A model generated the notes under the pieces. The model saw nothing but the letters and a program-made list of their open reading frames with translations. It was not told where the DNA came from and searched no databases. Positions 4,481 through 54,194 of a stretch of 64,000 bases of DNA are shown here, one piece after another. This stretch comes from Calditrichales bacterium (GTDB lineage Bacteria; Calditrichota; Calditrichia; Calditrichales; J004): positions 1,600,001-1,664,000 of the forward strand of contig OZ254086.1 of the NCBI GenBank assembly GCA_965267575.1, written 5' to 3'. Both the position numbers and the translations under genes were made by a program. Position 1 is the first letter of the stretch. Every line of letters starts with the position of its first letter.

Positions 4481-4481
4481 A

Positions 4482-20689: not shown

Positions 20690-20715
20690 GTGCTAAATAT
20701 CCTTATTTGTTAGAT

Positions 20716-27038: not shown

Positions 27039-27046
27039 TTATCTTT

Positions 27047-27098
27047 TATGAGTAAAATAATTGCTCGTAAATGTACGGGTCAATCTGCTCTATGTCAA
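27047..27098 (-). promoter_or_regulatory. Sigma70-type promoter with a downstream inverted-repeat operator
   Basis: Minus strand TTGACA (27098-27093), 17 nt, TACATT (27075-27070), followed by imperfect palindrome TATGAGTAA-N5-TTGCTCGTA (27047-27069). Confidence 0.65.
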
Positions 27099-27136
27099 TA
27101 GTGAATTAGGGTTGGGATGCAGGAAATAAGAAAATG

Positions 27137-33790: not shown

Positions 33791-33807
33791 TAACAGCTCC
33801 TGACTCT

Positions 33808-34848: not shown

Positions 34849-34862
34849 TCAGCCGTGGCCGC

Positions 34863-35786: not shown

Positions 35787-35805
35787 AAAGCGCAAAATAC
35801 ATTCA

Positions 35806-36579
35806 TTATAATGAGAGGTCTATTTGGGTCGCGGAATCGGAAATGTGAATATTATAGCGCTCGGCAGCGATCGGTTCATTGATTTGCAGGCCGGTATAGA
35901 TAATAGTCACACCCTGCTTCTCATCCGGACGAACGAAATTTACGAGGTGCGGGAAATAAATGCCATTTACTTTGCGGAAGTTGTCGTATTCTTTATAAAA
36001 TTGCAGTTGCTCTTCCAGGTAATACTCGATACGCGTGATCAGGTAATTTTCCGGATCAAACCAGATATGGTAGCTGTAGGCGCCGTTGGAGGCTTCCAGG
36101 TAATATTGGTCGTCGCGGACGGAGTAGCTTTGCTTCTGCAGCACATTAAAGCTGTTTTGCGCGGTAAAAAGATCGCTAAGCTGGTCCACATCCATTGGAA
36201 ACTGCAGGAAACGCCTGCCGCTGAGTTGCGCGCGATCGCCGGTGTAAAACTGGTTCATGGCCTGGTTGTAAAAAACAAAGCGGCTTTTGGAGAAATAGAC
36301 TTTTCCCAGGCGCATGCCAAACGGGCCGGTAACGGTAATTAAAAGACTGTCGCTTTCGTTGCGCAAAATTTCTGCGCTCAGGTTGCCGGAATATTCCGGC
36401 GTATCCAGCGTAATGCGCATGTCTCCGCTAATTGTTTTGATTGCATCCTGCCACTCCGCGTTATGACGCAAAAGCAGCTGGTAATCGGTTTTTTCTGCAT
36501 CGGGTTTTGTCGTGCTGAAATAGGCGCATCCCTGCAAAAAGAAGGCGAGCGATAACAATACTAATAATTTTTTCATCAA
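35806..36579 (-). CDS. DUF4292-like lipoprotein (LolA/LolB-like fold)
   Basis: Lipobox FLQGC; DSLLITVTGPFG and YDNFRKVNGIYFP segments; follows a TPR gene. Confidence 0.65.
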   Translation of the reverse strand: MMKKLLVLLSLAFFLQGCAYFSTTKPDAEKTDYQLLLRHNAEWQDAIKTISGDMRITLDTPEYSGNLSAEILRNESDSLLITVTGPFGMRLGKVYFSKSRFVFYNQAMNQFYTGDRAQLSGRRFLQFPMDVDQLSDLFTAQNSFNVLQKQSYSVRDDQYYLEASNGAYSYHIWFDPENYLITRIEYYLEEQLQFYKEYDNFRKVNGIYFPHLVNFVRPDEKQGVTIIYTGLQINEPIAAERYNIHISDSATQIDLSL

Positions 36580-38413: not shown

Positions 38414-40576
38414 ATGAAACGAAAAAAAAGAAACAACACTTCCTCGAATATTTCCCCGTTTAAAAGCAGTGCCTCTCAAACCGTGTTCAAGCCCAGTTTT
38501 TCAGAAGCCTTTAAAGATAAAAAACATTGGCTGATTATTTCCGTGCTGGCGGTTGTCGTCATCGGAGGCCTTATTTTTTTCTGGCAAATCAGCCGTGACC
38601 TGCCGCCTCTGGCTAAACTGGAACGGATTGAACCGGCCATGGCCACACAGGTCTATTCGTCCAACGGGGAAATCCTGCACTCCTTTTTTACATCCAACAG
38701 GGCCTATACGCCATATGACCGTATCCCCTCGCATGTAATTGACGCCTTGCTTTCGCGCGAAGACCGCAGCTTTTACGATCATTGGGGCATCAACCTGATG
38801 GGTATCGCCCGGGCCATCATTGTCGATATCCGTGAAATGGCTATCGTGGAAGGGGGCAGCACACTGACAATGCAGCTGGCCAAAAACCTCTACTTTGGCC
38901 GTGAACAGACTTTTACAAGAAAAATCAAGGAAGCCTTGACCGCCATCCAGATCGAGAAGACCTATTCTAAAAACGAAATTCTCGAGATGTACCTCAATGT
39001 AAATGATTTTGGTAATAATGCGTTTGGTATACAGGCTGCCGCGAGACGCTATTTTGATAAACCCGTTGAAGACATAACGGTGGATGAAGCCGCGCTGCTC
39101 ATCGGTATTTTAAAAGGCACCACACGCTATTCGCCCATTCGTCACCCGGAGCGTGCAAAGCACCAGCGCAACGTGGTACTAAGTACCATGGTCAGCAATG
39201 ACATGCTGAGCAAAGAAGCCTTCGACAGTCTTAAACAAAAACCATTGGGGTTAAACCTCAACGATCCAAATGAAATGAAAACGGCGCCCTATTTCACGGA
39301 ATTCATCCGGCGTCAACTGAACAGCCTGCAGGACTCGCTGGGGGTAAATATCTATGAAGACGGATTGCGGGTTTACACGACGCTTAATACAAAATTTCAG
39401 CACTATATGGAGAAGGCCGTAGAAAAGCACATCGACGCGGTGCAACAGCGAGTACGTAACCAGCGTGCTTTCAGGGAATTGCAGGAAACCCTGAGTGATT
39501 CGGCTTTTAATGAAGTAACTACCGTGCAGATCGCTTTTACAGCATTGAACCCGCACAACGGCCATATCCTGGCGATGATCGGCGGGCGCGATTTCAGCAA
39601 GTCCAAATTCAACCGCGCCACCCAGGCACGCAGACAGCCCGGTTCGGCCTTTAAGCCGTTCCTCTACACCGCGGCGATCGACAATGGGTTCTCACCCGTG
39701 GACCAGTATCTCAACCAGCCCACGGTAGAGATCAACCCCGATGGCACGCGCTGGACGCCGGAAAATTATGACAAATCCGTCGGCGGGCTGACCACCTTGC
39801 GCGAAGCGCTGTACCGCTCACTTAACCTAGTGGCCGTGCGCCTTATCGCCGATGTAAATCCGCGCAATGTGGCGCGTTATGCCAAAGCGCTGGGTCTTTC
39901 CACGCAAATTCGACCTTTCTCCTCGCTGGCACTTGGCAGCTCTGAGGTGATACCCCTTGAACTGACTGCGGCCTATGGCACATTCGCCAATAACGGCCTG
40001 CTTGTTGAACCGATCGGTATTATCCGCATCGAGGACCGCAACGGCAACATCATTTACCGCGATACGCCGCGGCCCAGCGAAGCGCTTTCGCCGGAGACAG
40101 CCCATATCGTGCGCGACATGATGGAAGATGTAGTGCGCCGCGGAACGGGTTACGCCCTGATACGTGACTATGGTTTATATAATCTGCCTTTGGCCGGAAA
40201 AACCGGTACCACCAACGACTTTACCGATGCCTGGTTTGTGGGGTATACGCCGGACATAGCCGCCAGTGTCTGGGTGGGGCTGGACGATCCGCAGATGAGC
40301 CTGGGACCGGGTATGACCGGCTCCGTGGCCGCCTTGCCCATGTGGGGCGAGTTTGTAAGTACGGTTTATGACAGTGTGGATTTTATCCATGGCCGTTTTG
40401 TTGATTCGCCGGGTGTGCTGAATGTGGAGGTATGCCTGGAAAGCAAAAAGCTGGCAACTCCTTACTGCCCCAATACGGTAACCGATCTGTTCACCGTGCG
40501 CAATAAACCCGCTGCCACCTGCGAAATTCACGGCGGCTTTGATTCAGTTAAGAAGACGCGGAAGAGGAGATTTTAA
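38414..40576 (+). CDS. Class A penicillin-binding protein (PBP1A family)
   Basis: Transglycosylase EDRSFYDHWG, GGSTLTMQLAKN and RKIKE motifs; transpeptidase SAFK, SLN and KTGT motifs. Confidence 0.94.
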   Translation: MKRKKRNNTSSNISPFKSSASQTVFKPSFSEAFKDKKHWLIISVLAVVVIGGLIFFWQISRDLPPLAKLERIEPAMATQVYSSNGEILHSFFTSNRAYTPYDRIPSHVIDALLSREDRSFYDHWGINLMGIARAIIVDIREMAIVEGGSTLTMQLAKNLYFGREQTFTRKIKEALTAIQIEKTYSKNEILEMYLNVNDFGNNAFGIQAAARRYFDKPVEDITVDEAALLIGILKGTTRYSPIRHPERAKHQRNVVLSTMVSNDMLSKEAFDSLKQKPLGLNLNDPNEMKTAPYFTEFIRRQLNSLQDSLGVNIYEDGLRVYTTLNTKFQHYMEKAVEKHIDAVQQRVRNQRAFRELQETLSDSAFNEVTTVQIAFTALNPHNGHILAMIGGRDFSKSKFNRATQARRQPGSAFKPFLYTAAIDNGFSPVDQYLNQPTVEINPDGTRWTPENYDKSVGGLTTLREALYRSLNLVAVRLIADVNPRNVARYAKALGLSTQIRPFSSLALGSSEVIPLELTAAYGTFANNGLLVEPIGIIRIEDRNGNIIYRDTPRPSEALSPETAHIVRDMMEDVVRRGTGYALIRDYGLYNLPLAGKTGTTNDFTDAWFVGYTPDIAASVWVGLDDPQMSLGPGMTGSVAALPMWGEFVSTVYDSVDFIHGRFVDSPGVLNVEVCLESKKLATPYCPNTVTDLFTVRNKPAATCEIHGGFDSVKKTRKRRF

Positions 40577-40613: not shown

Positions 40614-41015
40614 TTAGCCTGCTTTGACAAGTTCTAAAAATTCTCTCGGCGTTATAATTTTGATCGGAGAATTAGCCCTCACGTCCAATAAATCCTTGTC
40701 ACCCGTAATAAGAACGGCTGCTTTACTTTTTATAGAAAGGGCGAGGATCTTCTCATCATCCTTGTCTCGAAGTGCCAAAGGCGATGGTTCATTTGCATAG
40801 GTACATACTTCAAAGTGGTTTAGATAATTGAGAATATTTTTAACCGAAGTATCCGGCATTTTAAACTTCTTGAGCAGAGCATTTTTGAGTTCGGCAAGGA
40901 CCACATCGCCAATGACAAGCTCGTGTTCCTTGACTATAATTCTAAAAATATCAGCAGACAAACCACGCGAGACAAAGGCGCTTATCAGCACATTTGTATC
41001 CAGGAAAATCCTCAA
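40614..41015 (-). CDS. PIN-domain toxin
   Basis: IFLDTNVLISA, LAEL, RDKDDEKILA and LITGDKDLL motifs. Confidence 0.88.
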   Translation of the reverse strand: MRIFLDTNVLISAFVSRGLSADIFRIIVKEHELVIGDVVLAELKNALLKKFKMPDTSVKNILNYLNHFEVCTYANEPSPLALRDKDDEKILALSIKSKAAVLITGDKDLLDVRANSPIKIITPREFLELVKAG

Positions 41016-41230
41016 GAGATTTCCCTAAATACATCTTCATCTGTAAGGATATTTTTGCTTTCGCCGTAGGGCAGAGATTGTTCACGCAGTACCTCATACA
41101 TCTGCAGAAGTAGCTGACGACGCAGTGATTCACGGACCACTTCACTGCGCTTGCGCCTCTGCTGTTTGGCGACGGCGTTTAACAAATCGTTTAGCTCGTC
41201 ATCAAGACGGATGGTGATAGCATTTTTCAT
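41012..41230 (-). CDS. Ribbon-helix-helix (CopG) antitoxin
   Basis: MKNAITIRLDDEL...RSEVVRESLRR; overlaps the PIN gene start; tandem TGTnnnACA boxes immediately upstream (41230-41248). Confidence 0.82.
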   Translation of the reverse strand: MKNAITIRLDDELNDLLNAVAKQQRRKRSEVVRESLRRQLLLQMYEVLREQSLPYGESKNILTDEDVFREIS

Positions 41231-41337
41231 GTCATACAATGTAATACATGGAGCTTGAGGCCGCAAGAAATTGAATTTGATCGGGCCATATGGGATCGCA
41301 TGCCTTTGCAGCTTTTGAAGGCGTAGATGCTTCTTAC

Positions 41338-41700
41338 TTACGCAAAGTCATCATCCGCCTTGTTGGGATCAACAGCCTGGTATTTTTTATGTAGACGATA
41401 TGAATATTTTGTAAGAACAAAAATTATGATAAAGGAAAATGTGATCGTAAAGAAATTGAATTCCATATTACCCTTATACATATCGTAAATTACCCGTCCG
41501 ATCATAATTAACATATAAGTGCCTATATTTCCGCTGTCTGCAATCTCCGCCTGTCGTGGGCTTTTGGGGCGTATATAGTCTTTATAGAAAAGGATGAATC
41601 CCACCTGTTCCAAGACAAAAGAAACAATAAAAAAAGCAATAACTATTATATGCGCTTTTCCGATTGAAATTAAGACGGAGATGAATGATTCTGTTAGCAT
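41338..41700 (-). CDS. Putative membrane immunity protein (family B, copy 1)
   Basis: 120 aa with 3 hydrophobic segments, directly downstream of toxin tip B1; near-identical to 47481-47855. Confidence 0.65.
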   Translation of the reverse strand: MLTESFISVLISIGKAHIIVIAFFIVSFVLEQVGFILFYKDYIRPKSPRQAEIADSGNIGTYMLIMIGRVIYDMYKGNMEFNFFTITFSFIIIFVLTKYSYRLHKKYQAVDPNKADDDFA

Positions 41701-41715
41701 TTACTTTACGTCTCT

Positions 41716-42127
41716 TTATGGGTTAACAGCGCGATCTATTGTATGTATCCTTTGCATAAAAATTCCCGGTACATAAAATGGTTTATAATAATTCCCTGCT
41801 GGACCACCGATTTCCCGGCTGGCTCCAATGCTAATGGCAGTTAACAATAAGTCATTAACGACCGGAGCGTTTTGTAAGTAGAAATTATAATAACGAAGCC
41901 CAACCTCTATTGCCTTGCCTGAAGCAGCAGCAATACCTTCACCCGCATAGCTCACGCCAAGCGCAGCCGCTCCACTGGATGCTGCAATGGCGCCAATATA
42001 CCGCCTGATGTAATGGCGGTTAAGCCCGCCGCCAGCGTCTTAAAAGCCGCCTGCCGGCGCTGGATGTCGGGATCGTCGGCTAACCATTGTTGGATGTCAT
42101 CCCAGTCGTATGGGCTTAGGCTGGCTT
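41716..42127 (-). pseudogene. Headless polymorphic toxin tip B1 (frameshifted)
   Basis: Shared linker LSPYDWDDIQQWLADDPDIQRRQAAFKTLAAG..AVSYAGEG followed by a unique tip. A 2-bp insertion relative to copy B2 (ttggCGccatt vs ttggccatt) breaks the frame. Confidence 0.65.
41935..42127. repeat. ~190 bp direct repeat (type-B linker), partner at 47252-47442
   Basis: Near-identical sequence read directly at both positions. Confidence 0.9.
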
Positions 42128-42130
42128 ACA

Positions 42131-42910
42131 TTATTTAATCTCAACCCTTATCTTCCACTTAGAGCTTGCCTCACTACTCGTTACCTTCAAAAAAAGCTTC
42201 GTCACACCTCTCAGGCGGGTTTCCGTTTTTATTCTGCCATTAGTAGTGGTCATTTCTGTGGTAAACAGTTCTTTTCCGCTCTTGTCCGTAACATTTAACT
42301 GATCGGCTTCTTTATAAAATTCATAGGTTAGTTTTAGCTTTGTTTCGTAACCAGATAGTAGAACTTCCTTTGTTAGGCTGCCTGTTCCAGCGAATTCTTC
42401 GTTAAGTTCACGGTAGAATGTTTTGGAGCTATCTTCAGGAATATAATCATCCTTGTTAAACGAATTACACACCTGTTTTCCCTGTTTATCAAAACATAAT
42501 TCCATCTCTTTGTTAGATAATTGCTTTAAGTGAAAACTTAGCTTGCTTGACTTTTCAAATAATCCACTAAAAGAACCGTCATAACTTTCTAAAACAGTTC
42601 TTTCACTTAAAATCAATTCTTTTCCAGAAGGGTCATAGTGCCAAGTTCCTTTTTCAGTCATTGAAGTATAGGCTCCATTTATTCTTATGTCATTGTCCTT
42701 TAGTTTCCCCGTTAACTCATAGGAACCAATATCAGCGGCAATTGGATTATAAACGAAATACTTGTGATCTGACCTAAAAATAATAATATCTTGATATTCA
42801 CAATAATTGCATATCAGGAACCAGCTTCCCAATAATTTTTCTTCTTGTGGCTCGGAGCACGCAGTATTGCTTAACAACAGAACAAGAAACGCTATTTTAA
42901 TTATTAACAT
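42131..42910 (-). CDS. Lipoprotein, putative immunity protein for the M23 toxin tip
   Basis: Lipobox LLSNTAC then EEKLLGSW (lipocalin-like start); start overlaps the toxin stop (TAATG). Confidence 0.7.
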   Translation of the reverse strand: MLIIKIAFLVLLLSNTACSEPQEEKLLGSWFLICNYCEYQDIIIFRSDHKYFVYNPIAADIGSYELTGKLKDNDIRINGAYTSMTEKGTWHYDPSGKELILSERTVLESYDGSFSGLFEKSSKLSFHLKQLSNKEMELCFDKQGKQVCNSFNKDDYIPEDSSKTFYRELNEEFAGTGSLTKEVLLSGYETKLKLTYEFYKEADQLNVTDKSGKELFTTEMTTTNGRIKTETRLRGVTKLFLKVTSSEASSKWKIRVEIK

Positions 42911-43741
42911 TATTTTAGTCCTGGAAAGTATGGTGTTGGGTTAACCCAAGTTCTGTTAAGTCTCATCTGCAAATGAATATGAGGCGTTACATGAGGGGGA
43001 TATCCTAAACCTTGTAAATTCACTGATTGTCCAACAATATCACCTGGACTTACTTTTCTCCATCCACCTTGTATTGGTCCTACATAAAGAAGTTCTAATT
43101 TATCAAATCCAATGTTTGGATCGCTAGGAATAATTACAATAGTTGGTATGTCAATAGTTCGTCCATCCTTAAGTTTCTTTGGAAAAGAAGAATTAATAGC
43201 TCTGCCGGAAACAGGTGAAACAATATCCTGCCCATCAACGCTTAGAAAGTCTATTCCGTAATGTAGCCTATTTCCTCTTGGTGCCCCATAATGCCCCTGA
43301 CCTCCATCATCATTTCTAATGCCAAGCCCGGTTGGGTTGGTTAGGGTATTTCCCGCTCCTTGTTCAGAAACCCAGTAATAATACTCTAATGCTGCTACTT
43401 TGCCATCAACAATGCCGCCAGGCACACGCACAAGTCTTCCAACCAGATTACCTGAAACGGTTGTTTCTTCAAATTCCACGCCTGTATTCGCTGAAACATC
43501 TAAATACATTGAGAATAAACGTTCATTCACAATATGCCCATTGAACATGAAAGTAGTTCCCCCATAAGCCGGATGTCGCCACATTTCTGCAGGGCCGGAT
43601 GAAAGTTGGTTCAGCATCGATTCAAAGTCAACATCTATAGGCGAACTGTCCGCCCGCCCGTCCGGGTCATAGAAGTTGGGGGCGTTGTTGCGGTTGAATT
43701 TGTAGGGGTTGGCCCATTGCCGCGCCGGGTCGGTGGTGTGT
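42910..43741 (-). pseudogene. Headless Rhs C-terminal cassette with M23 peptidase toxin domain
   Basis: HTTDP..YDPDGR core end; tip GHYGAPRGNRLHYGIDF (HxxxD) and PHIHLQ (HxH), ending VNPTPY. The listed GTG start (43803) lies in an unrelated remnant. Confidence 0.82.
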
Positions 43742-43899
43742 CCCTTTACATCTGGACTTACGCTTTGCTCCAGCAAACACGCCGCCGTTGCACCCACTCT
43801 CACAACTCCAACACCTAGAACAACAGCTTTAAACCCAGCCTGCCGGCGTTGAATGTGTTGGGTTCACTGGTATTATAAGCAAATTGATACTTACAAATT

Positions 43900-44262
43900 T
43901 TAAGACATCATTATGGAAATCGTCAATGGTATCAAATATATCAAGATAACTAAAGTCGAATTAACGATATTAACTTCCTTTTGATGCTTTTCTTGTATTT
44001 TAACTATGCGCCTTTTTGTGAAATACAAATATACCGCCGTCCACCATATTATTAAAAACGGTAAGAAAATCGCCTTATTTGTGGAGCTGTCTTTTGAAAA
44101 ACTAATAAATATTTGGAAATCTAAGTAATATGACAGCAATACATGCAAAAAGCCCACATGAATAAGCATCGCTAACATAACTAAACCAGCAGTAATGAAC
44201 CTAGGGGTTTCATTTCTTCTTGCAATCAAAGGGTATAAAATAGCAAATAAATAACTGTACAT
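43900..44262 (-). CDS. Putative membrane immunity protein (family A)
   Basis: MYSYLFAILY..RRNETPRF..FLPF..VYLYFT..IYLIPL; paralogous to three other array genes; follows tip A1. Confidence 0.72.
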   Translation of the reverse strand: MYSYLFAILYPLIARRNETPRFITAGLVMLAMLIHVGFLHVLLSYYLDFQIFISFSKDSSTNKAIFLPFLIIWWTAVYLYFTKRRIVKIQEKHQKEVNIVNSTLVILIYLIPLTISIMMS

Positions 44263-44304
44263 AATTTACTCCAAAAATCGTCGCCATATTTTTCTTGTTT
44301 ATCT

Positions 44305-45110
44305 TCAATCATCAAAAATGTGTTCCGTTATCGAACGACCCGACGCGAATTGAAAAGTGATATCAAATGCATAATAGGTTGCAGCAAGCGTCCAGCCAAG
44401 CGGCCCTGATGCTAATACGCCTGCGGCAATAAAGCCGCCTTGAATAAGTAAGTCTGCTGTATGGTGATTTTCCCAACCATTACTAAGGCCATCGTAAACC
44501 GTTAACCCAGAGCCAGTTATACCCAAAGCAGTCCCACTAGCTTTGACAAATTTCAAATAAGGCTGTGCGGCTTTAACGCTGCGGTTCAGTGCTGCAGCCA
44601 GGTGGATCGTTTCGCCTTTAACGCCGTTCACAACACTCATAAAGCCAATTATATTTGCTAAATCTTTTGCTAAATCAGTATCGCCTCTCCAATACCAGTA
44701 TGCTTCCCCTTTTAAATCCCATTCAGAACCAGCAGTGCGAGTGTACGCTGCGCCAACTCTTATCCAACGACCTCCGGGTTGTGGGTCTGGAGGCCCGCCA
44801 GTAATGATTATTTTATCTACTTGATTTCTCGATATGGCGCTTTCAAGCCATGGCAAAAAGAAAGTGGCATCTACCGCTTTGCCGTCTATTTCAAAGCCCG
44901 TACCCCCATAAGCCGGATGCCGCCACATTTCTGCAGGGCCGGATGAAAGTTGATTAAGCATAGATTCAAAGTCAACATCTATGGGTGAACTGTCCGCCCG
45001 CCCGTCCGGGTCATAGAAGTTGGGCGCGTTGTTGCGGTTAAATTTGTAGGGGTTGGCCCATTGCCGTGCCGGGTCGGTTGTGTGCCTCTCGTCAAAGCCG
45101 GGTCTTATTA
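44305..45110 (-). pseudogene. Headless Rhs C-terminal cassette, hydrophobic toxin tip A1
   Basis: Degenerate RxYDPALxRW upstream of 45086, then intact HTTDP..DPDGR, linker and tip ending SITEHIFDD. Confidence 0.8.
44570..45086. repeat. ~515 bp near-identical direct repeat, partner at 45817-46333; shorter third copy at 43560-43741
   Basis: Sequences match at a 1247 bp offset (for example ttgccgtgcc at 45061 and 46308). Confidence 0.92.
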
Positions 45111-45170
45111 CGGTCTTGGGGGGCAGGTCATGGACTTTCCCCGCTCAACATGGCGTGATGCGCATGATTT

Positions 45171-45554
45171 TTACAAGGTAAAGGATATAAAAACCGACAA
45201 TGGAATAAGATATATAAAAACAACAAATAATATATTTTTAAAACTATGAATTCTTTCACCCTGATAGCTATTTAGGGTTTTTTTTATACGTTTTGGACTA
45301 AAATAAAGGTAAACTCCAACCATAAAAAAAAGAATGATAGGCAATGTACTGTACTTAGCTGTAAGGTTTGCCTCGGACATAAAATCGTAAATACCAAAAT
45401 ATTTTAACATTGCTAAGATACAAAAAACATGCATCCAAATAGCAACGAATACTACAACGGATGTTCCGAGTCTTGGGGTTTCATGGTTCCGTTCTTTTAA
45501 TTTTGTATAAAAAAAACCAAACAAAAAACTATACATGACTTCATTGCCTTTCAT
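45171..45554 (-). CDS. Putative membrane immunity protein (family A)
   Basis: MYSFLFGFFY..RNHETPRL..KYSTLPI..YLYFSPKRIK..IHSFKN..IYLIPL; starts 1 nt after the tip A2 stop. Confidence 0.75.
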   Translation of the reverse strand: MKGNEVMYSFLFGFFYTKLKERNHETPRLGTSVVVFVAIWMHVFCILAMLKYFGIYDFMSEANLTAKYSTLPIILFFMVGVYLYFSPKRIKKTLNSYQGERIHSFKNILFVVFIYLIPLSVFISFTL

Positions 45555-46538
45555 TTAATCAAAGAGATGTTCGGTTATCGAACGCCCTGAGGCGTATTGA
45601 AAGGTCATATCGACAGCATAATAACTGGCTGCGAGAGTCCAGCCAATTGGACCAGTAGCCGCAAGCCCTAAACCAATAAAGCCCCCCTGCAAAACTAAAT
45701 CTGCTACATGATGGGCATCCCATCCATTTGAAAGTGCATCAGCAAAAGTTAGCGCAACACCAATTCCACCCAAAACAGTACCAGTACCCTTAACCAAATT
45801 AAGATAGGGTTTGGTGGCTTTCACGCTGCGGTTCAGTGCTGCGGCCAGGTGAATCGTTTCGCCTTTAACGCCGTTCACAACACTCATAAAGCCAATTATA
45901 TTTGCTAAATCTTTTGCTAAATCAGTATCGCCTCTCCAATACCAGTATGCTTCCCCTTTTAAATCCCATTCAGAACCAGCAGTGCGAGTGTACGCTGCGC
46001 CAACTCTTATCCAACGACCTCCGGGTTGTGGGTCTGGAGGCCCGCCAGTAATGATTATTTTATCTACTTGATTTCTCGATATGGCGCTTTCAAGCCATGG
46101 CAAAAAGAAAGTGGCATCTACCGCTTTGCCGTCTATTTCAAAGCCCGTACCCCCATAAGCCGGATGCCGCCACATTTCTGCAGGGCCGGATGAAAGTTGA
46201 TTAAGCATAGATTCAAAGTCAACATCTATGGGTGAACTGTCCGCCCGCCCGTCCGGGTCATAGAAGTTGGGCGCGTTGTTGCGGTTAAATTTGTAGGGGT
46301 TGGCCCATTGCCGTGCCGGGTCGGTTGTGTGCCAACGTGCCAGGGCCGGGTCGTAATCCCGCCAACCAAAATGGTATTTCGCCAAGCCGGCTTCGGTATC
46401 CAGCTCTTTGGTGCTGAATTTAAGCTGGGTGTTGGTATTACCGCTGTTATAGGAGAGCCCGCCCATCTGCAGGCCAAAGGGGTAATAATCATCCTTGCTG
46501 ACGATTATGCCGTTTTCGTTAACTATCTTCTTTAAGTG
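45555..46538 (-). pseudogene. Longest orphan Rhs cassette: Rhs-associated core remnant plus toxin tip A2
   Basis: Open frame KIVNENGIIVSKDDYYPFGLQM..KFSTKELDTEAGLAKYHFGWRDYDPALARWHTTDP..NPY..N...YDPDGR matches the Rhs core consensus; internal ATG at 46466. Confidence 0.88.
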
Positions 46539-46611
46539 CTATATTGCCTTTAACGCAGGAATAGCGATAGGACGTAAAACCAATAGGCAGGTTTTTCAGC
46601 TTCCCATTTTA

Positions 46612-46971
46612 TTAACCATTCAAGTTATCGAAATTATTTTTCGTTGGATCTATTGGCGTAAATTTTAGGTGGATCTTGCCAAATATAATTGCAAGCAATA
46701 AGACTAAAACGAACCAAACCAAAAATGAAAAGCCTTCAGGATCGTCGTGATACGCTCTCAGATCATTAAATAGAACAAGTAGGTTGACGAAAAAATAGAA
46801 TAAGGCCGCTAGAACCGCAGCGCCGTCAGCCATAAATTTATTTTTTGGCGCCTTAAGATTAGACCATAACAAATATAAAAACTTTATTCGATTTTCAATA
46901 AGAAAACTAAGCAGATACAATATTCCTACTACAATTGTACCTTCAACAATAATTGATATCGTGTATTGCAT
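46612..46971 (-). CDS. Putative membrane immunity protein for tip B2
   Basis: 119 aa with 3 hydrophobic segments; starts immediately after the tip B2 stop. Confidence 0.65.
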   Translation of the reverse strand: MQYTISIIVEGTIVVGILYLLSFLIENRIKFLYLLWSNLKAPKNKFMADGAAVLAALFYFFVNLLVLFNDLRAYHDDPEGFSFLVWFVLVLLLAIIFGKIHLKFTPIDPTKNNFDNLNG

Positions 46972-46972
46972 A

Positions 46973-47442
46973 TTACTTCGGTAAAATTTGTATTATCTGC
47001 CCCATAATGTAACCGCTAATTCCCGGCCACCCACCAGCGCTAGCATCTGAGCCATATGAACTTGCAACACCATGAACAAATTGTGAAATCCCTTGATAAT
47101 TCCTTGTTGCAATATATAATGCCTGAGCGGTAGCAGCATTAGCCATATATATTGACGAATTTATCATCATCACTGCTTCCGCCTGGGCGGTTGTGGCAGC
47201 AATATAAAACTGTTCTGACACATATGGTAGTGTCGATTTAACTGCGGCAAAACCTTCACCCGCATAGCTTACGGCAAGCGCAGCCGCTCCACTGGATGCT
47301 GCAATGGCCAATATACCGCCCGATGTAATGGCGGTTAATCCCGCCGCCAGCGTCTTAAAAGCCGCCTGCCGGCGCTGGATGTCGGGATCGTCGGCTAACC
47401 ATTGCTGGATGTCATCCCAGTCGTATGGGCTTAGGCTGGCTT
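46973..47442 (-). pseudogene. Headless polymorphic toxin tip B2
   Basis: In-frame type-B linker followed by a unique Ala/Gly-rich tip ending GYIMGQIIQILPK; no convincing start codon. Confidence 0.65.
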
Positions 47443-47480
47443 TGTTTCAGCAGCAATGACTACTGGGCGTTGCTTCTTGT

Positions 47481-47855
47481 CTACGTAAAATCGTCATCCG
47501 CTTTATTGGGATCAATGGACTGGTATTTTTTATGTAGACGATATGAATATTTTGTAAGAACAAAAATTATGATAAAGGAAAATGTGATCGTAAAGAAATT
47601 GAATTCCATATTACCCTTATACATATCGTAAATTACCCGTCCGATCATAATTAACATATAAGTGCCTATATTTCTGCTGTCTGCAATCTCCGCCTGTCGT
47701 GGGCTTTTGGGGCGTATATAGTCTTTATAGAAAAGGATGAATCCCACCTGTTCCAAGACAAAAGAAACAATAAAAAAAGCAATAACTATTATATGCGCTT
47801 TTCCGATTGAAATTAAGACGGAGATGAATGATTCTATTAAAATCGTGACCATCAT
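47481..47855 (-). CDS. Putative membrane immunity protein (family B, copy 2; orphan)
   Basis: Near-identical to 41338-41700 with a different N-terminus; no cognate tip upstream; overlaps the stop of the previous gene. Confidence 0.65.
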   Translation of the reverse strand: MMVTILIESFISVLISIGKAHIIVIAFFIVSFVLEQVGFILFYKDYIRPKSPRQAEIADSRNIGTYMLIMIGRVIYDMYKGNMEFNFFTITFSFIIIFVLTKYSYRLHKKYQSIDPNKADDDFT

Positions 47856-48226
47856 GATGACAAGTAAATAATAATGGATAAAGGCACTATGTAGATTAGA
47901 GCAACAAAAACACTGTTTTTAAAACTATGAATATTTTCTTCGCCGTATTTAGCCAAAATGCTTTTTATACGCTTTGGAGAAAAATACAAATATGCAAAAA
48001 GCCAAATAACAATAACAATTGGCAAAAAACTGTATTTGTTTGAAAATTGCCCGTCAGGAAAAACGTCCATAACTGAATAGCCAAAAAACTCCCTTATTAT
48101 TGCGTCCAACGATAAGACATGAAATAGCACCGCTAGGAATACTGATCCCGCAGCATTAAATCTCGGCCCGCCACTATTTCTTTTTTTAATTAAGTGATAA
48201 AAAAAGGCGAAAACTAAATTATACAT
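47852..48226 (-). CDS. Putative membrane immunity protein (family A)
   Basis: MYNLVFAFFY..KRNSGGPRF..NKYSFLPI..YLYFSPKRIK..IHSFKN; follows tip A3. Confidence 0.75.
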   Translation of the reverse strand: MYNLVFAFFYHLIKKRNSGGPRFNAAGSVFLAVLFHVLSLDAIIREFFGYSVMDVFPDGQFSNKYSFLPIVIVIWLFAYLYFSPKRIKSILAKYGEENIHSFKNSVFVALIYIVPLSIIIYLSS

Positions 48227-48240
48227 ATTCTTTTATCCTC

Positions 48241-48655
48241 TCAATCAAATATATGCTCTGTTATTGAACGACCTGATGCGTATTGAAAAGTAATGTCAAA
48301 AGCGTAATACGTAGCAGCCAGTGTCCATCCGATCGGATTAGACCCGGCCGCTATGCCAACAACTATAAAAGTTGTTTGTAGGGCTAAGTCAGCATAATGA
48401 TGATTTTCCAATCCGTTTGTATGCGCATCAAGAGCTGTTAAACCAAGCCCTGTAAATCCCAATGCCGTACCAGTACCTTTTACCAAATTAAGATAAGGTT
48501 TTGCCGCTTTCACGCTGCGGTTCAGTGCTGCGGCCAGGTGAATCGTTTCGCCCTTGACGCCGTTCACAACACCCATAAACCCAATTATATTTGCTAAATC
48601 AGAGGCCGTGTTGTCCGTATCATATTCGTTCCAAATCTGTATTGTCGAATGCAGT
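48241..48655 (-). pseudogene. Truncated toxin tip A3
   Basis: DLANIIGFMGVVNGVKGETIHLAAALNRSVKA..HHYAD..PIGWTLAATYYAFDITFQYASGRSITEHIFD; lacks the DPDG region. Confidence 0.78.
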
Positions 48656-48656
48656 T

Positions 48657-49048
48657 CTAGAATAAGATTGGTAAACAAATAAAAAACAACAAAATGCTAC
48701 CAATCAAATAAGCCAAAACTATAGCCGTACCTCTTTTTTTTTGTTTAATGTGTTCTCCTTTATACTTATCTATTAAACCATCCCATTTGTCTTTATTATA
48801 CAAAGCAAAATGCAGGGCAAACCATACTATTATTAGTATAATACTTACAATATCTCCCGAGGATAAAAAATCAGCTATATTTAGCTTAAATGGAGTAACA
48901 GCTTCAAGTAAGCTCAAGAACGTAAGCATTAAAAAAAATGTACTGTTGCCAAAGTAATGACGACGTTAAAAACTGGAGTATCACCTCTTTTTAAAGCCCA
49001 CGAATATAATTTATAAATTATGTAATCGTACTTAAAAAACATATTCAT
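48657..49048 (-). pseudogene. Immunity-like membrane gene frameshifted in a T8 tract
   Basis: MNMFFKYDYIIYKLYSWALKRGDTPVFNVVITLATVHFF hits TAA right after the T8 run (plus-strand A8 at 48931-48938); one extra T joins it to ORF 48657-48929. Confidence 0.7.
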
Positions 49049-49158
49049 AAACTACCTTTAGTCATTTGCTGCATCTACCCAATCGCCCCAAAATCCTTCC
49101 ATATCACCAACAATATCTAATTCTCATTTGTCAAAAAAATGTGCTCCGTACTGAGTGC

Positions 49159-49524
49159 CTAAAATTTAACCATTATGATAAATGGAATAATATATATCAA
49201 CGAAACAACAATAATATTTTTTAACGAAAGAATATTTATATTTTCATATTTCTTTAGTAATTGCGCAATCTTTTTGGGTGTATAATAAAGGTATACGCCA
49301 ACCCAAATTAGAATTACAATCGGAAGAAACGAATACTTGTTATTGAAATACTCTTTAGAGAAAACATCGGAGATGGAAAAGTCCCAAAAAGCGTTTACCA
49401 ATGAGTTCAAACATAGAATGTGCAGCAAAACCGCCAAGTGTAGCAGGCCAGAAGTTTCAAACCTCGGTCTTTCGTGTTTCTTCTCAATTAGGCGATAAAA
49501 GAAAGCAAATAAATATTGGTACAT
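49159..49524 (-). CDS. Putative membrane immunity protein (family A)
   Basis: MYQYLFAFFY..KKHERPRF..NKYSFLPI..VYLYYTPKKI..SLKN..IYIIP; follows tip remnant A4. Confidence 0.75.
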   Translation of the reverse strand: MYQYLFAFFYRLIEKKHERPRFETSGLLHLAVLLHILCLNSLVNAFWDFSISDVFSKEYFNNKYSFLPIVILIWVGVYLYYTPKKIAQLLKKYENINILSLKNIIVVSLIYIIPFIIMVKF

Positions 49525-49552
49525 GAATTTCCCTTAAAAACTAAGATTACAA

Positions 49553-49665
49553 TTAATCAAATATATGCTCTGTTATTGAACAATCTGATGCGTATTGAAA
49601 GGTGATATCAAACGCATAATAGGTTGCAGCAAGCGTCCAGCCAAGCGGCCACGATACTAATACGC
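49553..49665 (-). pseudogene. Toxin tip A4 remnant (last ~36 codons)
   Basis: Translates as VLVSWPLGWTLAATYYAFDITFQYASDCSITEHIFD*. Confidence 0.78.
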
Positions 49666-49722
49666 GCCCCGCTCAACAAATACGCAGTTCACGCCTCGGG
49701 GCGTGATTGGATTTTTCAACAT

Positions 49723-49833
49723 TTACCGTTCCTGTGCGTCCACCAGCACCCGCGTGCTGCCGTCATCTTCTATCACGGCTATTTTCCCGGAGAGGCCGTA
49801 GGTGAGTGTGCGGGAAAGAGTCCCTTCCTTCAT
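49723..49833 (-). pseudogene. Degraded Rhs core remnant
   Basis: Translates as MKEGTLSRTLTYGLSGKIAVIEDDGSTRVLVDAQER*; GSTRVLVDA resembles the Rhs (DHL)GSTRxxxD motif. Confidence 0.5.
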
Positions 49834-49847
49834 CTTTCATCTTTGCT

Positions 49848-51050
49848 TCACTTCAACCAGGCCAGCGGGTCATAGGTCTGGTTGCCGCCGTAGATTTCAA
49901 AATGCAGCTTGGAGCCGGCCAGCGCGCCGCTGTCGCCCACCCGGGCGATGACCTGGTTGTTGTCCACGATATCATTTTTCTGCACGTAAATTTCGCCAAG
50001 ATGCGAATAGACCGTGTAGTAGCCGTGCCCGTGATCGATGATCACCGTGTTGCCGTAGCCGGAAAGGTAGGTGATCATGCGGACGACGCCGGTGAAAACG
50101 GACTTTACGGGGGCGCCCAGCTTGCTGGAGATCTCGATGCCGCTGTTGGTGACGTAGGTTTTGGAAGCCGCGTCGTATTGCTTACCAAACTTGCTGATCA
50201 CTTTGCCTGAGACGGGCCAGGGCAGCCGGCCCTTGCCTTTTTTAAAATCATCAAAATCGATAACGACCGGCGCTTCGGCAGGTCGCGGGCTATCCGGTTT
50301 TTGCGTCCGCTGCCGTTCCAGGGCCAGCTTGCGTTCGCGTTCCAGCGTGGCAATAAGTTGGGTCAGCTTTTCACGCTCCTGTTGTTTTTGCGTGATCTGC
50401 CTTTGGTAAAAGGATTCGTCTTTTTTGACGCTGGCCAGTAGTTGCTGCTTCTCATCCAGGCGGGCTTTGTAGCGCTGTTCTTCGGCCAGCTTCTCACGCA
50501 GGCTGCGGTTTTTTGCTTCCAGGTCGGTGGTGAGCCGGCGCTGAAGTTCGCGGATCCTGTTTTCCTTTTCCTCAATCTGGCGGATCGTTTTTTCATCCTG
50601 TTCCGCGATGCGTGCCAGGTAGCGGTAGCGTATCAGCGCCTGGTTCAGCGACTGCGCCGTCAGGATCAATTCAAGGTCGCGGACCTTGCCGTGCTTATAA
50701 GTGTAAACCAGCCGCTGGGCGTATAGGTCTTTCAGTTTTTGCAGCTTGTCGCGGGTGTCGCGAAGTTCCAGGCGGCTGTTTTTGAGGCGCTGCTCCAGCA
50801 GGCGTTGTTCGCGCAAAAGCAGACCTTTGGTGCGGGCGATCAGGGCGATCTCCTTATCAATCTGGTTTACCTGCTGGTCGATGCTGCCGGCCTTTTTCTC
50901 CGTGGACTGCAACTGCTTTTTCAGCGAGTCGATTTCATCGCGGATGGCATCGAGGCGCGAGCGGTTTTGGCGCAGTTGTGTGTCATAATCCTGTGCCGGC
51001 ACAGAAACCAGCAAAGCCATCAGGGCGATCGTTAAGACTCTAAAACGCAT
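49848..51050 (-). CDS. envC: Murein hydrolase activator EnvC family (coiled coil plus degenerate M23)
   Basis: Signal peptide, long coiled coil, KGRLPWPVSG, NSGIEI (first metal-binding His absent), YGNTVIIDHG and LHFEI. Confidence 0.85.
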   Translation of the reverse strand: MRFRVLTIALMALLVSVPAQDYDTQLRQNRSRLDAIRDEIDSLKKQLQSTEKKAGSIDQQVNQIDKEIALIARTKGLLLREQRLLEQRLKNSRLELRDTRDKLQKLKDLYAQRLVYTYKHGKVRDLELILTAQSLNQALIRYRYLARIAEQDEKTIRQIEEKENRIRELQRRLTTDLEAKNRSLREKLAEEQRYKARLDEKQQLLASVKKDESFYQRQITQKQQEREKLTQLIATLERERKLALERQRTQKPDSPRPAEAPVVIDFDDFKKGKGRLPWPVSGKVISKFGKQYDAASKTYVTNSGIEISSKLGAPVKSVFTGVVRMITYLSGYGNTVIIDHGHGYYTVYSHLGEIYVQKNDIVDNNQVIARVGDSGALAGSKLHFEIYGGNQTYDPLAWLK

Positions 51051-51846
51051 ATTGAAATCCAAGTCCATGACTGATATTGAGAATAGGATGCAGTTCCAAT
51101 GCATAATCTAAAACAAAAGGCCCGTTTTTGTAAGCAGCCCCGGCCGAAAAAACGTCCTGATCGCGCACGCCACCCAACAGATCAAACTGCTCCAGCACTT
51201 CCACCGCCAAACCAATGTGGTAGGTGAAATCGTAAAGTTCATCTTTAAAGATATCAAAATTCAGCACTATACCCGAAGCAGCCGCGTAGCTAAAAGCCAG
51301 CGCGCCCTGCAGCGGCACCTGCTCGCCGGATTGCCCCAGTTCCGGGCGCAAAATGTTATCGGCGACCGCGGCAATGGTAATAGACTGTACAGGCCGGTAT
51401 TGCAATGCAACGGAAAAGGAGACAGCACCGGCGGAGCCATAGCGTTCAATCGAAAGCTGGTAAAAATGGAATGCCACGCCCGTCTGCAGTTGTCCGTCCA
51501 GCCAGCTATAGGCGGTGCCCCAGGCGATGTCGTTTTCGCCGTAAAGAGGATTGCCAAAGCGGTTGAGAGCCACGGCGTGGTTTAAACCCAGGGCCTTAAA
51601 GCTGCCCTGAACGGCCAGACCATTCAGACCTTCCACACCCCAGTAAGTGCGGTAAAACAGGTCAATCCGTACTCGTTCGCTAAGAGCAATTGTCGCCGGA
51701 TTGGCGAACAGGCTGAAGGATGTGGCTGCGGCTCGTCCGGACAAACCCAGCGCCATATAGCGGGTGCCGGGAAGCCTGGCCTCAAAGGCGGCTTGCAGCG
51801 GAAATGCGATCAGAAGTGTGATAAAGAGAAAGCGTTTCAGGGCCAT
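51040..51846 (-). CDS. PorV/PorQ-like outer-membrane beta-barrel protein
   Basis: Signal peptide, GTRYMALG..FANPA N-terminal motif, amphipathic strands, C-terminal LDYAL..HP.L..SH..GFQYAF. Confidence 0.6.
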   Translation of the reverse strand: MALKRFLFITLLIAFPLQAAFEARLPGTRYMALGLSGRAAATSFSLFANPATIALSERVRIDLFYRTYWGVEGLNGLAVQGSFKALGLNHAVALNRFGNPLYGENDIAWGTAYSWLDGQLQTGVAFHFYQLSIERYGSAGAVSFSVALQYRPVQSITIAAVADNILRPELGQSGEQVPLQGALAFSYAAASGIVLNFDIFKDELYDFTYHIGLAVEVLEQFDLLGGVRDQDVFSAGAAYKNGPFVLDYALELHPILNISHGLGFQYAF

Positions 51847-51934: not shown

Positions 51935-53068
51935 TTATCGATTTTTAATACGCTTTATATAAGCGTCCCATACACTCAAGAATGTTTCCAAATTTGATGG
52001 AGACAGTAGAGAATTCAGATTAAAAGAAGGTCTTCGATTTATCGAATCTTCGGGAAGTTTAATTCCCGGAATTTTATTTAATTTTCTTAACAAATCCAAA
52101 CGATTAGACTTCTCATTATAAATAGGTTTTTCCTTGATCCATTGAAAGGAAATTTCAACTGTCGCATTTGTCCATATTGAAAACATAAAATATTTACTAT
52201 CACTATAATCAAGCATAGGAACTAATGAGCCCAATTTCTGTCCTTTACCCCACCAAACTCTTAAGCCATTCTTTTCCGTCCAGCTTAGAATATTTTCTAC
52301 GAGGTCTGAAATATCTCTTCCAAAGTCTTGCCCTATTCGCTCTAAAAACGACTCCCGGGTCCACTGAGTCTTGGCGCTTTGTAAACGTGATTTTTTTTGC
52401 TTGACAATTGAGTTTTGCCCGACGACACGGGGAACAAGTGTCTTTCTGGATCCGGACGAAAACTGTTTTATTTCTACTCCCAATATCTCTGCCGGATTCA
52501 TTTGTTCATTTAAAAATTCAATAATTCCTCTCAATTCAGTGGGTATTTCATCAGCGACTATTAAAAGCCGGATTTGACCAATTTTTAAATTGTCTTCTAC
52601 TTTTTGCCAAAAAGCCGCGTAATCTTCTTCAATTTCTAAAACGCTGCGTAGCTTATCTTTTGCGTCCAAGCCGTTTTTTTGACAAAAGACTTCAAATGTA
52701 GCTTGTAGCTTTTCGGCGTTCCAATATGTTACAGCATTAGCTGCATACTCCAAGATTTGTCCGATCACTTCGCGCCTTATTCGCGTATCAGAACTACGTT
52801 TTACTTCTACCAACGTAGGTATACCGTCCTGATCAAGGAATAAGTGATCAACATACCAACGACTTATTCCTTCATCATTGTCGAATACGGATGCCTCTTT
52901 GGCGATTAAAACCCATCTTCTTGGATTTAAGTCATCTATTTGATCACCGGGAATCAGGTTTGGGTAGCTGACAAGTAATTTCTGTAGTATAAGTTCGGTA
53001 TCATAGGCCCTCTCATGCATTTCAACGAGACTGCCGTCTTGTTCGATAAGAAATATTCCGTTGCTCAA
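51935..53068 (-). CDS. PD-(D/E)xK nuclease-like protein (NucS/EndoMS-like N-domain)
   Basis: E..LQ.LL..YP, VDHLFLDQDGIPTLVEVKR and RREVIGQILEYAA motifs; AT-rich; TTG start with SD-like gggg (alternative ATG 53128). Confidence 0.65.
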   Translation of the reverse strand: MSNGIFLIEQDGSLVEMHERAYDTELILQKLLVSYPNLIPGDQIDDLNPRRWVLIAKEASVFDNDEGISRWYVDHLFLDQDGIPTLVEVKRSSDTRIRREVIGQILEYAANAVTYWNAEKLQATFEVFCQKNGLDAKDKLRSVLEIEEDYAAFWQKVEDNLKIGQIRLLIVADEIPTELRGIIEFLNEQMNPAEILGVEIKQFSSGSRKTLVPRVVGQNSIVKQKKSRLQSAKTQWTRESFLERIGQDFGRDISDLVENILSWTEKNGLRVWWGKGQKLGSLVPMLDYSDSKYFMFSIWTNATVEISFQWIKEKPIYNEKSNRLDLLRKLNKIPGIKLPEDSINRRPSFNLNSLLSPSNLETFLSVWDAYIKRIKNR

Positions 53069-53155
53069 ATGACCCCCATGAAAATATCTATCAAATTTAT
53101 ACACTAAACGGTATAAATTCGATAGCATTTTTGATGCGGGCCATTTTAAGTGAGG

Positions 53156-53501: not shown

Positions 53502-53741
53502 TTATTCATCCTCCGAAATCGAGGTCCGGGAGCGGATTTCCTTCAATACATCCGTAATTTCCGCGGTGGTAATTCCAGTATTGACGCCTTTTACATTTAA
53601 AGGTGACTCGTTTTCTTCAGCAGGAAGTAAAATAAAAGAAGAACCATCTCTTCGTTTGATCAAAACCTTTCCTTCTATCCTGGCTTTCTCCAAAACGGCC
53701 GCAAAGTTTTGTCTTGCTTCAGAGTATGTGTAGGTTGTCAT
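53502..53741 (-). CDS. Phd/YefM family antitoxin
   Basis: MTTYTYSEARQNFAAVLEKA...VLIKRRDG. Confidence 0.85.
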   Translation of the reverse strand: MTTYTYSEARQNFAAVLEKARIEGKVLIKRRDGSSFILLPAEENESPLNVKGVNTGITTAEITDVLKEIRSRTSISEDE

Positions 53742-53743
53742 TT

Positions 53744-54109
53744 TTAGACCTCAATTAGATTTATTCCTTCACTTGAAGCTATGTCAACAAGAGCATTGTC
53801 CAAAGAAATTAAAGGACAATTTAACTCTTTACATGCCACGATAAAGTATGCATCATATGCATATATTGAATATCGATATGAGACCAATAGCGCATCATCA
53901 AGGTTTATGTCCAAAAACCGAATGGGAATTTCCTGATAATACTTTATTGCTTGAAGTGCTTTTTTGCTGGTCAGACGTTTTCTTCGAAACATTGCTGAAA
54001 ACGCATTTCCAACTTCCCAGTGTAACGAAGCAGGTGCAAAAAGTTCAGCGCTTTTTGTAATTTTGACAATTCGATGCTTTGTTTCTTCGTTTAAAAGAAC
54101 CGCTATTAC
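53744..54109 (-). pseudogene. VapC/PIN toxin lacking its N-terminus
   Basis: Frame extends upstream of 53992 as VIAVLLNEETK..APASLHWEVGNAFSAM and contains YAYDAYF and LISLD. The start codon and the first D(T/A)S motif are missing. Confidence 0.75.
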
Positions 54110-54194
54110 AAAATACGTAAGGGAAACGTTAAATCAGCACACGTTTTTTCATCACAAAAAATATGTATATTGTGGACTTAATTGATAGAAGGAC

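Follow-up and report, generated by a model that had tools for sequence, protein, structure and literature searches.

An orphan Rhs array without a detectable parent gene and a probable immunity reserve in a Calditrichales bacterium

Why would a chromosome hold a row of Rhs toxin tips, each with a small partner gene, if no gene that could deliver these tips is found in the same genome? The question is raised by a locus of a Calditrichales bacterium whose genome (G000) consists of a single contig (C1) of 4,732,520 bases. The window analysed here is the stretch of 64,000 nucleotides (nt) at C1:1600001-1664000, and positions without a contig name refer to this window. A cassette array occupies positions 41338-49670, entirely on the minus strand. 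It comprises six Rhs toxin-tip fragments (A1, A2, A3, B1, B2 and M23), four stubs and nine partner open reading frames (ORFs), eight of which are intact. The locus is an ordinary orphan Rhs array, a known locus type found here in a little-studied bacterial group. From sequence comparison we consider it probable that the array is a relic without its parent gene, and that its partners constitute an immunity reserve.

The array shows the features of orphan rhs-CT/rhsI arrays, namely a core before a variable C-terminus, a partner for each tip and co-oriented cassettes joined by repeats. It lacks the feature of a swap library, which is an intact rhs gene with a near-identical core as acceptor. The original prediction, made from the letters alone, had placed an Rhs core at 46250-46538; the model TIGR03696 recognised it at 46248-46487 in A1 with 56.4 bits (cut-off 32.5). 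A1 is the only fragment with a whole core. A2 and M23 retain the last third, and A3, B1 and B2 have none. The predicted repeats were likewise recovered and are far above chance: A1 and A2 share an identical run of 481 nt (46333-45853, offset 1247), and B1 and B2 are 95.5% identical over 201 nt. The tips belong to three families (A, B and M23), and a partner gene follows each of them. Among the intact partners, seven are predicted to be small membrane proteins and one a lipoprotein.

Search for the parent gene

Of the nine cores that TIGR03696 detected genome-wide, one is that of A1, six are located at C1:247-257 kb, another lies at C1:1859 kb, and the last belongs to a gene of 2,522 amino acids (aa). 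The latter is the only long Rhs gene of the genome, is of the SpvB/TcdB type (Tc-type) and adjoins a TcA-like gene of 3,160 aa, both lying in a Tc-like locus at C1:84358-102525. Its core is 32% identical to that of A1, with 8 nt as the longest exact DNA match, compared to 11-14 nt between A1 and the cores at C1:247-257 kb, which follow a PKD domain (PKD-type). Global alignments of three cores fell to fewer than 30 columns, and from these the exact-match lengths were used. BLASTN of positions 41001-50000 against the whole 4.73-Mb contig gave outside matches of merely 46-71 nt; those of 56-71 nt at 80-84% identity link the array to the other Rhs arrays of the genome. Twelve long or shell-bearing Rhs queries matched cores and tips in the genome and no shell. 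An RHS_repeat search of the genome gave no match even though the Tc-type gene is present, and is therefore too blunt to show absence.

The nearest full-length relative is an Rhs protein of 2,514 aa in genome G007, with RHS_repeat and DUF6443. Its shell, used as query, matched G007 and G005 and gave no match in G000, G004, G008 and five further genomes. A phylogeny of 21 cores placed A1 with the shell-bearing Rhs proteins of G005 and G007 (support 100/99), and a clade of A1 with the PKD-type cores of its own genome was rejected (approximately unbiased test, p-AU 0.012). Both core trees were inferred without the Tc-type core, the first tree lacking nine rows including this one. The grouping of the A1 core with the shell-type proteins of G005 and G007 suggests that the parent would have been a long shell-type rhs gene, and no such gene was found in the genome. 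Closer parents were also sought outside: a metagenome scan covering 75 loci yielded a best core identity of 63%, the tips and partners of the window had no match in these 75 loci at E ≤ 1e-3, and a word-index search with the C-terminal region of A1 among long proteins returned none of 7,051 candidates. Parentless sets are not unique to this genome. G011, another single-contig genome of the order, carries eight cores, none of them in a frame longer than 560 aa; they lie at C1:4836000-4850000 and C1:49000-55500 of that genome, interleaved with transposase-like ORFs. The full-length gene of G007 (G007:C64:10000-28000) is located among genes that resemble, by eye, a type II secretion or pilus cluster, a possible export route.

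The original prediction had offered two places for the parent, either elsewhere in the genome or formerly next to envC. The first is not supported by the searches above. A deletion next to envC fits what we see and is unproven, and the array may equally have arrived already headless. With no acceptor in the genome, the tips could not be reloaded by ordinary homologous recombination, and the proposed silent toxin library did not hold up.

The genes at C1:247-257 kb deserve a description of their own. They encode a methionine with a hydrophobic leader, a PKD domain, an Rhs core and a variable tip, without a YD shell. Three are intact, one of these ending in Ntox33, and a stop codon interrupts a fourth; the intact genes lie at C1:251752-257240, and each is followed by a different partner ORF. 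One of the intact genes spans C1:256035-257240, and its core has a DPxG motif, a putative site of self-cleavage. The PKD call is supported by the predicted fold (TM-score 0.89 to a collagenase PKD), and a structure model of such a protein is confident over the PKD domain alone (mean predicted local confidence, pLDDT, 44). The same layout occurs in four proteins from other sources, which are 36-86% identical over the first 150 residues, and among 85 other genomes of the phylum part of the PKD was seen in G010 only. Since their cores fall in another clade, the PKD-core genes are, judged by sequence, not the parent of the array. They are a candidate class of shell-less Rhs genes and a more novel object than the array itself; none of the titles found in the literature describes shell-less PKD-Rhs proteins. 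Named homologues of the Rhs cores of the genome come from Calditrichota.

A third parentless Rhs array lies at C1:1858900-1863100. It contains fragments with a CBM96-like domain before the core, and a DNA identity of 87% connects it with the fragment C1:250333-250741. An ORF at C1:258477-258881, which heads the 247-257 kb array, appears PIN-like by eye. Furthermore, a non-coding element of about 420 nt with internal inverted repeats occurs at C1:250673-251095, C1:1997017-1997439 and C1:4065307-4065730, with pieces in the window at 49667-49714 and 45141-45170. Copies, whole or partial, are found in or beside all three Rhs arrays and next to an isolated Imm53 gene; one further site with a copy lacks toxin genes.

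Cassette order, insertion site and assembly

Read from its 5' end on the minus strand, the array opens with a 48-nt hairpin stub (49667-49714), which is one end of the element of about 420 nt and matches C1:251002, C1:1997109 and C1:4065638 at 85-90%. It is followed by the A4 stub (49553-49666), the final ~31 codons of a family-A tip with 77% aa identity to the end of A1, and by its intact partner iA4 (49159-49524; 121 aa), which shares 41-50% identity with iA1-iA3, has three transmembrane helices predicted from hydropathy and gave no match to the Bfi1 model at E ≤ 0.1. The A5 stub (49127-49159) has about ten codons that resemble the end of a family-A tip in a translation judged by eye, and is too short for statistics. 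The X stub (49058-49126), about 21 codons ending just before iX, is by its position probably the end of the lost toxin of iX. iX itself (48657-49048) is a Bfi1-like partner whose reading frame shifts at a T8 run near 48930; its 3' part matches NF053699 (E 8.1e-6), and in all four sequencing runs a contig spans the break without difference. Next come A3 (48241-48640), a family-A tip in an open frame with a short linker, 75% aa identity to A1 residues 204-327 and a match to NF053698 (E 2.1e-5), and the intact iA3 (47852-48226; 124 aa, three transmembrane helices, NF053699 E 1.6e-4). The iB copy (47481-47855) is an intact duplicate of iB2 without an upstream toxin of its own, 96.5% identical over 369 nt to 41328-41696, with six synonymous and six non-synonymous differences from iB2.

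B1 (46973-47442) is an open family-B tip with a linker that resembles sequence in the C-terminal region of a G005 ORF with an Rhs core (40% over 43 aa, E 1.7e-6 among the fetched loci); its intact partner iB1 (46612-46971; 119 aa, three transmembrane helices) is 29% identical to the ORF after an Rhs-core ORF in G010 (E 1e-6). A1 (45555-46538) joins the whole core, a linker and a family-A tip in an open frame of 327 codons without shell, and is followed by the intact iA1 (45171-45554; three transmembrane helices, NF053699 E 1e-6). A2 (44305-45087) has the last third of a core, a linker and a divergent family-A tip, and its intact partner iA2 (43900-44262) also has three transmembrane helices and matches NF053699 (E 5.9e-4). 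The B3 stub (43746-43863), a family-B linker remnant with 82% identity over 28 nt to the B1/B2 linker, is fused in frame to the M23 cassette (42910-43745), which consists of the last third of a core, a short linker and an M23 peptidase tip. After the intact iM23 (42131-42910; 259 aa) the array ends with B2 (41716-42127), a family-B tip with a frameshift near 41992 caused by a 2-nt indel relative to B1, and iB2 (41338-41700), an intact membrane partner of 120 aa with 33% identity to the ORF after an Rhs-core ORF in G010 (E 5e-16). The first reading of six tip fragments and nine downstream ORFs, all but one intact, was thus upheld, iX being the broken one; its three short remnants are four stubs in our count (A4, A5, X and B3), and its description of the tips as mostly start-less or frameshifted was too strong. 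B2 alone is frameshifted, and the other five are open frames with the 5' end cut off, in each of which an in-frame ATG, GTG or TTG is present; the Rhs N-terminus is missing.

The array belongs to a stretch of about 9.3 kb with low GC content between envC and pbp1A (40% in the array part compared to 51-55% in the flanks). A ribbon-helix-helix (RHH) antitoxin gene (41012-41266; PF01402) and a PIN toxin gene (40614-41015; PF13470, TIGR00305 60.3 bits), together at 40614-41266 on the minus strand, are part of the same inserted stretch and close it. The 5' flank of the insertion is an envC-like M23 coiled-coil host gene (49848-51104, minus strand; PF01551 E 1.4e-25, NF008644 below cut-off), the 3' flank the host gene pbp1A (38414-40576, plus strand; TIGR02074 599 bits). 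The envC-like gene was found in all 12 relatives searched. In seven of them pbp1A follows envC by at most about 370 nt and the site is empty; in the remaining five another gene follows, and no Rhs-like ORF was seen by eye in the 1.5-kb flanks. The array is therefore an insertion in this lineage.

The pattern of similarity among the cassettes indicates how they may have come together. Beyond the 481-nt identity, the tips of A1 and A2 are 66% identical in amino acids, with a non-synonymous divergence (dN) of 0.24 and a synonymous divergence (dS) of 1.28. M23 shares only its first ~185 nt with A1 and A2 (94%), the homology of A3 to family A begins later, about 120 codons from the end, and B1 and B2 have about 200 nt in common before they diverge. 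The core pieces of A1 and M23 differ by ten synonymous and no non-synonymous changes in 59 codons, which argues that both came from working genes. The 5' cuts of A2 (45087) and M23 (43740-43745) lie no more than about 5 nt apart on the core, and those of B1 (47442) and B2 (42127) fall on the same base; the upstream DNA differs in both pairs. The tips would accordingly be old, selected on working genes and later shuffled at several nested points of homology. C-terminal displacement has been described as the origin of orphan rhs modules (PMC2935791). Here, cassettes would have piled up behind a full-length rhs through repeated displacement of this kind, with crossovers that fell in the core, in the linkers behind it and within paralogous tips, and the head gene would have been lost at this site or before transfer.

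It is hardly credible that the array is an assembly chimera of strains or loci. Such an error might be suspected from the several long near-identical repeats and from the use of a single sample: the four runs come from one sample, which is possibly the source of the assembly, so that this check is not independent. No contig piece among those listed spans the entire array, and two loose contig ends at 41927 and 48694 carry sequence absent from the genome. Against a chimera, contigs of all four runs cover the unique segments 10-16.5-fold and the flanks 10-15-fold, which corresponds to single-copy, chromosome-level depth, and the repeats show the collapsed depth that is expected. The contigs, from which rare variants are dropped, list no variant letters, indels or joints over the array, and they bridge the junctions with envC and with pbp1A, the break in iX and most of the junctions between cassettes.

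Elsewhere in the window, further toxin-antitoxin genes are a Phd-PIN pair at 53502-54133 and a CopG-like antitoxin gene at 4434-4778. A low-GC ORF of 397 aa (51935-53128) without Pfam or NCBIfam match lies between a conserved PorV-like gene and nad genes, and a polysaccharide synthesis cluster at 19565-35819 includes a sulfotransferase and a D-glucuronyl C5-epimerase domain. No tRNA gene was found in the 64-kb window, and the one Rfam candidate (E 0.82, below gathering) was rejected.

Toxin tips and their partners

Family A is represented in the window by three tips and five partners. HMMER with the family-A tip over 1.84 billion representative sequences gave 106 matches; two are proteins of the window itself, and nearly all others cover the last ~80 residues. 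Among 41 of these matches, chosen by hand with longer proteins favoured, TIGR03696 recognises a core in 27, and four proteins are longer than 1,100 aa; the family-A tip thus also forms the end of other Rhs proteins. Of 38 outside loci, 36 had a match in the next ORF (E < 1e-3) when searched with a partner profile built only from the five partners of the window; the remaining two scored 0.004 and 0.007. In total the profile made 50 matches among the 691 ORFs of at least 80 aa in these loci, which are mostly from Bacteroidota by title. The pairing of tip and partner proposed for the cassettes therefore also holds outside this genome. A word-index search with the partner alignment gave six matches, five of them from the window. 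At three loci of other genomes, several family-A or Bfi1-like partners follow one another behind short tip stubs, resembling the 5' end of our array.

Both halves of the family-A pair point to the same known system. All three tips match NF053698, the model of Bfe1 (E 2e-5 to 0.014), and four of the five partners match NF053699, the model of Bfi1 (E 1e-6 to 6e-4). In the family alignments, 16 of 31 tip rows match the C-terminal region of Bfe1 and 20 of 31 partner rows match Bfi1 at E ≤ 0.01. The matches to Bfe1 begin at position 224-226 of 313 and cover the last ~80 model positions, a region predicted to be transmembrane; according to PMC13035841, Bfe1 has predicted C-terminal transmembrane regions. 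Unlike Bfe1, family A lacks the N-terminal Hcp-loading region and forms an Rhs tip rather than a cargo effector of a type VI secretion system (T6SS), and its scores are weak. The sequence comparison indicates a distant relationship of the family-A pair to Bfe1/Bfi1 of Bacteroides fragilis. Bte2/VasX (PMC12718326) was considered as a relative and dropped without a sequence test. VipB and Hcp gave no match in the genome with models that may miss Bacteroidota-type systems, and a GldL search was uninformative, since no control genome was matched.

The family-A tip is predicted as three helices (pLDDT 84), and a fold search with this model returned generic helical bundles (best Z 7.7) and was uninformative. 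By hydropathy each partner has three hydrophobic segments, and the tips themselves stay below the transmembrane threshold used. The predicted complex of the A1 tip with iA1 reached a median score of 0.18 (mark 0.32). Bfe1 kills when directed to the periplasm (PMC6692515). By analogy, the family-A toxin would most likely act on the membrane from the periplasmic side and be blocked by an inner-membrane partner with three transmembrane helices.

The M23 tip carries both metal-binding motifs, HxxxD and HxH, found by pattern. It reaches 20.4 bits with PF01551, below the gathering cut-off of 28.7, and a score of 0.97 to M23 clusters in Atlas, where ten of ten best matches fall in the family and the nearest clusters are mostly phage M23 proteins. 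iM23 has a hydrophobic N-terminus ending in cysteine (by eye) and no match in Pfam or NCBIfam, with homologue searches covering these databases and the own genome. A peptidoglycan endopeptidase is the most likely identity of the M23 tip, and the lipoprotein iM23, which is paired with it by position, is likely its periplasmic inhibitor. This arrangement resembles the M23 T6SS effectors of Acinetobacter described in PMC6833914, in which an M23 domain with both motifs is followed by a predicted lipoprotein, except that M23 forms an Rhs tip here. For family B, the tips had no family match, and pairwise comparison of B1 and B2 with the G010 tip was not significant (E 1.3 and 0.034); the assignment as tips is therefore based on linker and partner homology only.

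Present function of the array

In polyimmunity loci and rAID arrays, pdif-like recombinase sites lie between the genes. No tyrosine recombinase was found among the scanned neighbours, which are the PIN, RHH, pbp1A, envC, PorV-like, 397-aa and Phd-PIN ORFs and make up part of the ORFs of the window. Like the loci described for Vibrio T6SS (PMC5361080), polyimmunity loci (PMC3482391) and Bacteroidales rAID (PMC12247911), the array retains several immunity genes that are divergent paralogues, with no toxin that could be delivered. In its presumed way of working it resembles the orphan arrays found behind rhs and cdiA as well as the Vibrio immunity arrays. Polyimmunity loci, as PMC3482391 defines them, contain no toxin fragments, and here six are interleaved with the partners, so the array is not a polyimmunity locus; nor is it an rAID array of the kind described in PMC12247911, because no recombinase was seen beside it. 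The orphan rhs-CT/rhsI arrays described in PMC2935791, PMC3150448 and PMC5727410 are closest: co-oriented, with core fragments of varying length, variable tips, a small partner after each tip, low GC content and some frameshifts. Our array differs from them in that no intact rhs with a matching core is present upstream or elsewhere, in that breakpoints also occur downstream of the core and within paralogous tips, and in that half of the six fragments are coreless. Orphan and truncated Rhs modules are described as common (10.1101/2025.05.08.652813).

We favour a relic array whose tips would be undeliverable today and whose eight intact partners would shield the cell when neighbours deliver toxins of the same families. 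Four family-A partners that have diverged to 38-50% identity are intact, one of them behind a mere 31-codon stub, and an orphan CdiI is reported to be produced and protective in E. coli EC93 (PMC3150448). Several observations weigh against this view. The lesion load is equal, with one frameshift in 3,885 nt of toxin DNA and one in 3,758 nt of partner DNA, so that selection for immunity alone is not shown; with iX broken, the partners are not demonstrably better preserved than the toxins. The 481-nt identical repeat indicates a recent rearrangement, and intactness may merely reflect youth. The only whole core lies in mid-array rather than at the 5' end, where simple serial displacement would place it. 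Promoter-like matches exceed those in shuffled sequences modestly (38 compared to 24.3 ± 5.0), none of them tied to the array. Whole-protein scores are far under the curated cut-offs for Bfe1 (24.2 compared to 315 bits) and Bfi1 (28.8 compared to 100 bits). Finally, the genome is 98.2% complete by marker genes and its gap-free status is unproven. The retained immunity bank of the original prediction stays plausible, with the equal lesion load counting against it; its observation is confirmed and its interpretation partly supported.

The equal lesion load and the broken partner would also fit neutral debris, in which a recently acquired or decapitated, unexpressed array decays and partners are whole only for lack of time. 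The 5' end, where erosion has left stubs next to part of a repeated element, and the nonsense mutations reported for orphaned immunity genes in Snodgrassella (PMC5727410) point the same way. Since all but one of the nine partners retain a complete frame from start to stop codon although many breakpoints lie nearby, and the duplicated iB pair shows a dN of 0.022 against a dS of 0.08 (small numbers), we regard this explanation as somewhat unlikely, though one to be reckoned with. A doubtful idea is that the lineage dropped shell-type Rhs for a compact exported 'mini-Rhs' (signal peptide, PKD, core, tip); the array would then be expressed as a bank of several antidote alleles directed at a Bfe1-type membrane toxin of wide distribution, would have outlasted the abandoned shell gene and would on rare occasions feed tips to the mini-Rhs via short core homology. 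That the array is a live swap library, its acceptor a full-length rhs in other cells or the own PKD-core genes, is improbable. Five of six tips are open frames, A1 and A2 were recently homogenised, short matches lead to the other arrays, and swapping has been demonstrated with orphan modules of other bacteria (PMC3150448); on the other hand, no shell gene was found in the genome, the exact core matches are short, the PKD-type cores belong to another clade, the contigs list no joints and no close core was found in metagenomes. Still less probable are internal toxin-antitoxin modules, with tips translated from internal starts and acting inside the cell, as shown for Salmonella rhs-CT/rhsI (PMC7043789). 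In-frame starts in five fragments and the closing PIN-RHH pair would suit them, but the periplasmic killing reported for Bfe1 (PMC6692515) and the need of M23 for peptidoglycan do not, the fragments lack the Rhs N-terminus, and no clear ribosome-binding site is seen by eye before the ATGs of A1 and A2.

Although the type of locus is familiar, three aspects give the array wider value. With no acceptor in the genome, the locus separates toxin swapping from immunity storage as proposed uses of orphan modules. It defines a family of Rhs tips and partners without a Pfam model, mostly in Bacteroidota, which the lists of Zhang 2012 may already include. Our literature search, to which most subscription papers were closed, found no relevant paper on Rhs in Calditrichota; the array points to Rhs systems in this phylum, including the candidate shell-less Rhs genes outside the window. 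The tip and partner family is linked to the C-terminal region of Bfe1, an effector from the gut, and supplies natural series of alleles for studies of specificity.

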